IMG/VR virus record: IMGVR_UViG_3300029686_000225
Length of the DNA stretch: 48,664 nucleotides
Source: a virus
Taxonomy: Duplodnaviria > Heunggongvirae > Uroviricota > Caudoviricetes
Direction: 5' to 3' (one strand)
The notes beneath the pieces were generated by a model. That model ran no database searches. It was not told the origin of the DNA and saw only the letters and a list, made by a program, of their open reading frames with translations. Position numbers and translations under genes: made by a program. Below, piece by piece: positions 32,022-33,069 of the stretch (positions within the stretch are counted from its first letter, which is position 1; the number at the start of each line of letters is the position of its first letter).

Positions 32022-32735
32022 TCAAAAATCAAGCCCTTGCATAGATACATATCTGTCTGGCGGGAAGCCATAATAGCGGTGAAATACAGAGATAAAGTAG
32101 GACCTACTTGAATAACCGCATTTTTCTGCTACAGCCTGTCCATATCCATGTCGGGAACATAACATATTTACAGCAACCCGCATCCGTTCCTCAAGTAACA
32201 AATTACTGAACCTGAGACCTTCATCCTTGAGTTTTTTCTTTAACAAGCTCTCACTCATATGCAACTGTAGAGCAATCGCACCAAGCGTCCAGCTTGATGA
32301 TATATCTGTTTGAATAATCGCTCTGACTTTGACACTTATACTGGATACACATCCACTTAAAAATAATGACATCCGTTCATCTGATTCAAACAGCGACAGG
32401 CAGGCCATCATAAGAAACATATCCGTGGTCTCTCCGGAAAATCTCTGGCTGGTAATTAAAGCTGCAGCCAGCGCAGGATTGTTGGGGTCCAGCAACAAGT
32501 AAAGCGGAATGTCAGTCAGAGGACCTCTTGTCAGCTTATGCTGGCTTTCCAGATATTGACTTACTATAGAATGGCTTATATCGACAATTTTAACTTTGCC
32601 ATAATGCATAAGGAAAAGCTCCCTGATGCATTTGGTGGCCAGAACGACTGAGCCGGGCTTAAGTGACAACGTATCCTTTTCAAGAAAAATATTAATTGGG
32701 GAGCAAACCATGATAACTGAACAGACAACATCCAT
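32022..32735 (-). CDS. AraC-family transcriptional regulator
   Basis: C-terminal HTH_18 pattern (WTLGAIALQLHMSESLLKKKLKDEG...YSSRSYFISVFHRYYGFPP). Confidence 0.75.
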   Translation of the reverse strand: MDVVCSVIMVCSPINIFLEKDTLSLKPGSVVLATKCIRELFLMHYGKVKIVDISHSIVSQYLESQHKLTRGPLTDIPLYLLLDPNNPALAAALITSQRFSGETTDMFLMMACLSLFESDERMSLFLSGCVSSISVKVRAIIQTDISSSWTLGAIALQLHMSESLLKKKLKDEGLRFSNLLLEERMRVAVNMLCSRHGYGQAVAEKCGYSSRSYFISVFHRYYGFPPDRYVSMQGLDF

Positions 32736-32871
32736 TATAATTTTACTTTAATTAGCAATTGGTTAGCTTAATTATAGCCCCAAAAAGTAAATTCTCATCA
32801 ACACATAAGCAAATGACTGACAGGTGCCGCTAACACCCACCAGCCGCCCATTACCACGAATTAAAAAGCCT

Positions 32872-33069
32872 TCACTGCGGAAGGCGTCTGTAACAACCGA
32901 ACTGATAATCTGCCAGACCCGCAATAACAAGCTGAGTCAGTATTAACTGGCAGCGTTCGCGTGAAAAGTAAGTATTCTGCGCAATTTCCCCGACGGTCGC
33001 CGGTTCGGTGACGCTTAATTCATTAAACACCACTCTGGCGGTTTCGGTCATATCCTGCTGTTTTAGCAT
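32872..33069 (-). CDS. small hypothetical protein (possible DNA-binding)
   Basis: 65 aa from ATG at 33069 with AGGGA RBS. Confidence 0.4.
   Translation of the reverse strand: MLKQQDMTETARVVFNELSVTEPATVGEIAQNTYFSRERCQLILTQLVIAGLADYQFGCYRRLPQ

Follow-up and report, generated by a model that had tools for sequence, protein, structure and literature searches.

The minus-strand open reading frame (ORF) at positions 32022-32735 of IMG/VR virus record IMGVR_UViG_3300029686_000225, a 48,664-nucleotide stretch of Caudoviricetes DNA that is referred to here, at its full length, as the window, most probably encodes a Psr-family activator of the AraC/XylS class, whose gene forms a self-contained cassette among the late genes of a lambdoid Escherichia coli prophage, between the late antiterminator gene Q with its terminator tR' and a group of tRNA genes. 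An initial annotation of the sequence had proposed a prophage-borne AraC regulator of the Psr/Pat kind as late-region cargo, and this proposal is supported by an identity of 88-89% to ECs_1087/psrA of E. coli O157:H7 Sakai and by a gene order common to the two prophages; the homology comparison with Psr and Pat regulators that it had recommended is positive for Psr. For a specialist the case is an ordinary one, in that the ORF is an uncharacterised allele of a known family at its usual genomic place.

Family assignment and integrity of the AraC-type protein

The 237-aa product matches PF00165 (HTH_AraC; E 5e-13, 49.3 bits against a cut-off of 26.6) and PF12833 (HTH_18; E 2.2e-10, 41.1 bits against a cut-off of 33.6), and it possesses the C-terminal domain of approximately 100 residues with two helix-turn-helix (HTH) motifs by which the AraC/XylS family is recognized. 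The lack of a functional HTH had been named in the initial annotation as one outcome that would speak against a regulator; on the sequence side, the Pfam matches and an intact modelled HTH domain are found.

Sakai ECs_1087, which a 2026 study from the Tree laboratory places in prophage Sp4 and names psrA, with a PsrA/GadE cascade that represses the locus of enterocyte effacement (PMC13502914), was used as the reference for the Psr comparison. The window protein is 88% identical to it over the 195 annotated residues and 89% identical over the full 237-aa frame. According to reviews PMC10877973 and PMC8565820, PsrA and PsrB share 90% identity, and the window protein thus falls within the spread of the Psr family itself. 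In Sp4, the order of Q (ECs_1084), a small ORF (ECs_1086), the AraC gene (ECs_1087) and the tRNAs is that of the window, and the region upstream of psrA, including the -10 hexamer, is conserved between the two. The differences from Sp4 lie in the tRNAs, which are ileZ-argN-argO in Sakai and CAT, Lys and a degenerate third in the window; in pchA, which is nearby in Sp4, whereas no pchA is found near the window AraC gene; and in 26 substitutions in the protein, two of which fall in predicted recognition helices: K166 (Sakai I) lies in the first and R211 (Sakai W) opens the second.

The chromosomal K-12 regulators YdeO, GadX and GadW and the DLP12 regulator AppY have the same architecture, can be aligned over the full length and all feed gadE and acid resistance system 2 (AR2), but their identities to the window protein are 34% for GadW, 30% for GadX and 29% each for YdeO and AppY. 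The best full-length NCBIfam model is YdeO (profile positions 1-230 of 253), followed by GadX, and both equivalogs (NF007407 and NF007432) were rejected, with 105 bits against a cut-off of 348 and 90.8 bits against a cut-off of 500, respectively. Given these identities and scores, orthology to YdeO, GadX, GadW or AppY is rejected. PatE (OI-8, Sakai Sp1) is likewise a prophage AraC/XylS protein of similar length that aligns end to end with the window protein and has been reported to act on gadE and hdeA. Sakai ECs_0287, a candidate PatE inferred from its AraC-type "transcription regulator" annotation and its location in Sp1, is, however, only 35% identical to the window protein, for which reason orthology to PatE is also rejected, and its setting is beside an insertion sequence remnant and not in a late operon. 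In a database search, the same protein (cluster representative at most one residue different) carries only the annotation "helix-turn-helix domain-containing protein" of Escherichia coli. The relatives grade down to 38% identity, with one cluster of 2285 members at 89% and others that are O157 fragments, and E. coli and Shigella are the only sources named for the family matches.

At 237 aa, the reading frame is as long as those of its relatives. An AlphaFold (AF2) model, built on a shallow alignment of 10 sequences, has predicted local distance difference test (pLDDT) values of 81-95 in the DNA-binding domain and 46-75 in the N-terminal domain. The modelled C-terminal domain comprises seven helices at residues 133-232 in a double HTH arrangement, and the modelled DNA-binding domain superposes on the GadX crystal structure 3mkl at 1.2-1.4 Å, with template modelling (TM) scores of 0.89-0.91 and 41-42% identity. 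The top whole-chain Foldseek matches are Rns, CsvR and ToxT (E 4e-9 to 5e-6, with whole-chain TM of only approximately 0.4), virulence regulators of the AraC class with solved structures, and a family-profile hmmsearch also favours these proteins (E about 1e-28); their whole-chain sequence identities, however, are 13-22%, and the N-terminal part of the model is of low confidence. As modelled, the protein is an intact two-domain protein, with an N-terminal domain resembling those of Rns and ToxT and a canonical double-HTH C-terminal domain. Relative to the Sakai allele, the ratio of nonsynonymous to synonymous substitution rates (dN/dS) is 0.24 for the whole gene, 0.13 for the DNA-binding domain and 0.51 for the N-terminal domain; judged by these ratios, the gene is under purifying selection that is looser on the presumed sensor/dimerisation domain.

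A damaged Psr copy is present in the O157 assembly GCA_910593955 (positions 5875-6624 of locus L001), in which the frame is lost before residue 28, so that the annotated product starts at an internal Met and has 207 aa.

The cassette, its neighbours and its distribution

In this region every gene lies on the minus strand, and both ORFs noted in the initial annotation, the AraC gene and a small HTH-like gene upstream of it, are present where they had been placed, downstream of an ORF that is indeed Q (Table 1). The gene content, together with the order found in Sakai Sp4, indicates that the AraC gene is encoded on a lambdoid prophage. In local blastn comparisons, phage phiP27 is homologous to the window at 31842-32011, which holds the tRNAs, and at 32799-33217, from the small-ORF region to the hairpin downstream of Q, with nothing between. 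A DNA methyltransferase gene occupies the corresponding place in phiP27, and many Stx2 phages match in the same two pieces and have a methylase annotated, apparently in the AraC slot. Therefore, the AraC gene together with its predicted promoter constitutes an exchangeable cassette of 787 bp. With respect to the features of a moron, the cassette is a discrete insert relative to phiP27 and has a predicted promoter, and no terminator of its own was found before the tRNAs. The G+C content is 0.39-0.45 across the cassette versus 0.50-0.58 in the flanking lysis and DUF968 genes.

The predicted promoter at the cassette edge is the top-scoring site of the promoter scan, and the 150 nt upstream of the AraC gene are nearly invariant in six aligned Psr loci, with an invariant -10 hexamer. 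Between the AraC stop (32022) and the first tRNA (31995), which are separated by 26 nt, no terminator was found in the scan, and the next good one, at 31415-31398, lies past the tRNAs and a 92-aa ORF; with no terminator on the way, transcription started at the cassette promoter would continue into the tRNA genes.

Among 5426 complete E. coli genomes, 726 (13%) carry the AraC gene, in 1-4 copies each (median 2), at 90-95% nucleotide identity and mostly in Shiga toxin-producing (STEC) and enterohaemorrhagic (EHEC) serotypes. Alleles at least 99% identical to that of the window occur in 27 genomes, and the complete genome of calf strain 52F4 has one that is 100% identical at the nucleotide level; in the index of an assembly collection, the exact protein is recorded for 352 blocks. 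The prophages around eight loci with the identical protein differ in their Q, lysis and terminase modules; among the loci examined, the neighbours of the cassette include Q genes of at least three types, terminase genes of two types and several lysis cassettes. Where a locus has another type of Q, its homology to the window begins at the hairpin downstream of Q (33215-33218), which also marks the upstream edge of a module common to other prophages. A copy that differs by one residue is located directly upstream of the tRNAs and stx2k in phage phiSTEC1575-Stx2k.

A comparison that took in phiP27 (L011), EDL933 (L003) and the loci L012, L018 and L013 presents the stretch from Q/tR' to the tRNAs as an exchange hotspot, in which the slot 3' of the small ORF holds either a Psr gene or a DNA methyltransferase gene. 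TerB and DUF3927 genes follow the tRNAs in some loci and stand directly after Q in EDL933, and genes for a CAAX-protease, a DUF4236 protein or a GIY-YIG protein are found between Q and the small ORF in other loci.

Table 1. Features from Q to the end of the tRNA block, in the order of transcription (promoters and hairpins are predictions)
Feature	Coordinates	Strand	Evidence
Late antiterminator Q, 273 aa	33298-34119	-	PF03589 Antiterm E 2.6e-50; phrog_127 "anti-termination protein Q-like" E 1e-110
Terminator-like GC-rich hairpin with T-run, 80 nt past the Q stop	33217-33198	-	Consensus scan; -11.2 kcal/mol, z -2.4
Small winged-helix gene, 65 aa from ATG	32872-33069	-	Conserved phage family; phrog_331 E 2.5e-36
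Terminator-like hairpin with T-run, overlapping the small-ORF stop codon	32885-32868	-	Consensus scan; -9.4 kcal/mol, weak z -1.6
Long hairpin between the small ORF and the AraC cassette	32845-32815	-	-18.4 kcal/mol, z -2.1; conserved in aligned Psr loci
AraC cassette ("moron"), 787 bp	32012-32798	-	Local blastn against phiP27
AraC gene promoter (predicted, sigma-70), ATGAGA-16-TATAAT, located at the cassette edge	32798-32771	-	Consensus scan, 10/12
Probable Psr-family AraC/XylS regulator, 237 aa	32022-32735	-	Pfam; 89% to ECs_1087/psrA; phrog_1450 E 7e-93
Predicted promoter-like site TTGATT-16-TATTAT at the AraC 3' end, just upstream of the tRNAs	32032-32005	-	9/12
tRNA, CAT anticodon, called Met	31920-31995	-	ARAGORN; Rfam tRNA 72.5 bits
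tRNA-Lys (TTT)	31842-31918	-	ARAGORN; Rfam 33.1 bits
Degenerate third tRNA-like sequence	31771-31839	-	Rfam tRNA 26.7 bits, under the gathering score of 29
92-aa ORF	31439-31717	-	phrog_2873 E 2.8e-46 (function unknown)
Strong intrinsic-terminator-like hairpin, block end before the holin genes	31415-31398	-	-12.3 kcal/mol, z -3.8

The hairpin downstream of Q is probably tR'. In the spacer between Q and this hairpin, the consensus scanner reported no sigma-70 site; by eye, an extended -10-like sequence, TGGTAAATT, can be seen at 33273-33265 on the minus strand and is a possible late promoter pR'. An Rfam Trp_leader match at 33191-33270, which scores 28.7 bits against a gathering score of 41 and covers the terminator hairpin, was rejected. 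The initial annotation had set the AraC gene between two terminators; terminator-like hairpins do exist, but those at 33217-33198 and 32885-32868 bracket the small ORF and not the AraC gene. The second of them is kept in every Psr locus aligned.

Related prophages have tRNA-Ile (ileZ) or tRNA-Met annotated at the position of the CAT tRNA, and tRNA-Thr is one of the tRNAs annotated beneath the corresponding match in related genomes. The tRNA block of the window (CAT, Lys TTT and the degenerate third) is unlike the ileZ-argN-argO block that is usual in Stx and O157 prophages, and the corresponding tRNAs in related genomes are Ile, Thr, Gly, Lys or Arg in varying combinations. The 92-aa ORF sits after the tRNAs, where Stx phages carry stxAB. 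No match, PerC and Pch included, was obtained for it in a Pfam scan, and the same product is encoded 3' of the AraC gene in three prophage loci (L012, L014 and L018). PADLOC gave no match for the AraC protein, the small ORF or the 92-aa ORF, and a defence-system role was rejected for all three. The hairpin that closes the block is the strongest terminator of the region, with none of 200 shuffles equally stable; two holin genes and an M15 endolysin gene follow it and then the terminase, and Q, RusA and DUF968 genes lie upstream of the AraC gene.

Proposed function and competing explanations

PsrA and PsrB are described as prophage-only AraC/XylS regulators that repress type III secretion by raising GadE and YhiF; PsrB, and likewise PatE, binds the hdeA promoter (-132 to -45) and increases acid resistance, and PsrB also binds the gadE promoter to the same effect (PMC10877973, PMC8565820). 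PsrA, PsrB, PatE and AppY are all reported to act on gadE/AR2 (PMC10877973, PMC8565820, PMC10057817). In Sakai, psrA is reported to be active and is transcriptionally responsive (PMC13502914), and the Psr family is associated with effector loci and Pch regulators (PMC10877973).

By analogy with PsrA and PsrB, the likely function of the window protein is the activation of gadE and the GAD acid-resistance regulon. In the lysogen, the AraC gene would be transcribed from its own predicted promoter at 32798-32771, and the Psr protein would bind AT-rich sites at the gadE and hdeA promoters and raise GadE and YhiF, which in turn may switch on glutamate-dependent acid resistance (the AR2 genes and hdeAB). 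In hosts that carry the locus of enterocyte effacement, type III secretion would be repressed indirectly, as for PsrA, PsrB and PatE. After induction, the gene would additionally be read through by Q-modified polymerase, because it is oriented with the late operon.

Several points weigh against this identification and function. The locus tag of psrA is disputed, being z1789 in OI-50 according to the reviews (PMC10877973, PMC8565820) and ecs1087 in Sp4 according to PMC13502914, and the segment 1625000-1674000 of EDL933 (CP008957), a potC-side prophage with nleL, espN and espK that was taken for OI-50, contains a TerB pseudogene after Q and no AraC gene. The promoter is only a match to the consensus, and the scan gave 5 promoter-like sites compared with 4.6 in shuffles. 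No pch or effector gene was found among the window ORFs scanned, which are a subset of the ORFs in a window that ends in tail genes. Finally, target specificity could differ from that of PsrA because of the 26 substitutions, including K166 and R211.

Psr-type regulators link prophage carriage to host acid resistance and type III secretion, and through this link the stomach survival of E. coli and the colonisation of ruminants are affected. The window allele is not confined to O157, a sequenced Stx2k-converting phage carries a near-identical copy immediately 5' of the toxin genes, and the Psr slot or the stretch around it is exchangeable, with a methyltransferase, TerB or CAAX-protease gene instead in the phages examined. 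These points are modest and leave the knowledge of the Psr family unchanged.

The explanations that compete with a Psr-type, host-directed regulator turn in part on the small ORF. Its family, PHROG 331, has no function assigned in PHROGs or in any record examined and is called "TrmB family transcriptional regulator" by the Prokaryotic Genome Annotation Pipeline (PGAP). The Pfam scores are below threshold (TrmB, E 0.0075, 16.5 bits against 25.6; MarR, E 0.045; MarR_2, 14.3 bits against 27), and a search of PDB sequences gave no significant match (best E 0.09). The 290 homologues, many of them 63-65 aa long, have 31 invariant positions and occur in E. coli, Shigella, Salmonella, Klebsiella, Citrobacter and Buttiauxella. 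A TTG-started frame of 106 aa (32872-33192) was rejected, since many homologues, also in other genera, have 63-65 aa counted from the Met of MLKQQDMTE or a variant of it. The AF2 model (pLDDT 91) has helices at residues 4-16, 26-33 and 37-49 and strands at 53-56 and 59-62, that is, the three helices and the beta-hairpin wing of a winged HTH fold, and Foldseek matches it to the winged helices of IclR, MarR/OhrR and GntR (PhnF) proteins (TMq 0.62-0.84) and also to the non-DNA-binding winged helices of O-methyltransferases. The description of this ORF as "HTH-like" is supported by the model as a statement about its fold, but the ORF is not a specific companion; it is a widespread phage gene that is also found without an AraC gene.

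In the E. coli phages examined, the small ORF follows the terminator-like hairpin downstream of Q, and it may be asked whether the winged-helix protein gates expression of the late operon or of its cargo, or else whether the window Psr allele has a regulon that is shifted from that of O157 PsrA and PsrB, a reading suggested by the differences in the recognition helices (K166 and R211). This pair of readings is unlikely. If the gating reading were true, the Psr cassette, the methyltransferase gene and the other alternatives would be inserted where the small winged-helix gene can gate them.

It is quite improbable that the small winged-helix protein and the AraC protein function as a pair, such as an activator with a co-regulator or an anti-activator, that was acquired and kept as a unit. 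The small ORF does lie 137 bp upstream of the AraC gene in 8 of the 8 loci with the identical AraC protein, and the same arrangement is found in Sakai Sp4, in phiSTEC1575-Stx2k and in strain CFIAFB20180511. In phiP27, however, L23 is of the same family and stands at the same late-region position, with DNA 93% identical over 32799-33217 and nothing notable to distinguish it from the small ORF, and it is followed by the methyltransferase gene and not by an AraC gene; the Stx2 phages with a methylase annotation match in the same way. The host range of the small ORF extends to Salmonella and other genera, whereas that of the AraC family does not go beyond E. coli and Shigella among the named matches. 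In Sakai, ECs_1086 (L002, 18344-18583) is 94% identical to the small ORF over 49 residues and divergent thereafter, probably through a frameshift, yet psrA is reported to be active. Two hairpins, one of them terminator-like, stand between the small ORF and the AraC gene, as does the cassette boundary at 32798. Because of the AraC-free occurrences, the altered Sakai frame beside a psrA that is reported active, and the separating hairpins and mosaic boundary, it is concluded that the small ORF is a neighbour behind which the AraC cassette has been inserted and not a dedicated partner.

A regulator directed mainly at the phage itself, that is, at the late genes, the downstream tRNA/toxin block or lysogeny, and not at host acid-resistance genes, would be compatible with the position of the AraC gene within the late operon in the same orientation, and with the copy that precedes the tRNAs and stx2k in phiSTEC1575-Stx2k. 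The targets published for close relatives are, however, the host genes gadE, yhiF and hdeA, the cassette can be exchanged for an unrelated methyltransferase gene, and the variety of Q types, lysis cassettes and terminase types beside it fits host-directed cargo and not a core phage function; such a role is thus very unlikely. The same small probability is given to a silent or decaying gene without regulatory effect in the host: the segment is AT-rich, as is typical of H-NS-silenced DNA, the Shine-Dalgarno sequence of the AraC gene is weak, some Psr copies are damaged elsewhere and the prophage is crippled by an insertion in terL, but the ORF is full length, its dN/dS values are low, above all in the DNA-binding domain, identical or near-identical alleles are kept in other complete genomes, and Sakai psrA responds transcriptionally.

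Other elements of the window

The terL gene of the prophage is split into two fragments (26045-27238 and 10531-11274) by a 14.9-kb insert at 11275-26170, with junctions near 11274 and 26170. The insert carries genes for an integrase, two HTH regulators, a Bro-N protein, an Icd-like protein, a DUF927 primase, SSB and a ProQ/FinO protein, and further for a major capsid protein, an HK97 protease, a portal protein, a head-tail connector, an HNH protein, TerS and a complete TerL. This gene order presumably matches that of capsid-forming satellites of the phage-inducible chromosomal island (PICI) type. A search for direct repeats of the attachment (att) type flanking the insert gave none that was convincing. 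The two terL halves are annotated as pseudogenes by PGAP in a related genome, and the same split configuration is found in 33 complete E. coli genomes.

Additionally, a C5 cytosine methyltransferase gene (PF00145; PADLOC MTase_II, E 9e-91) overlaps the gene of a 703-aa HATPase_c_3 protein at 35948-39149 on the minus strand, and the latter protein matches PADLOC models of type II restriction enzymes (E 1.8e-34). From these matches, the pair looks like a prophage type II restriction-modification system, situated between ORFs of the early region and the DUF968, RusA and Q genes.

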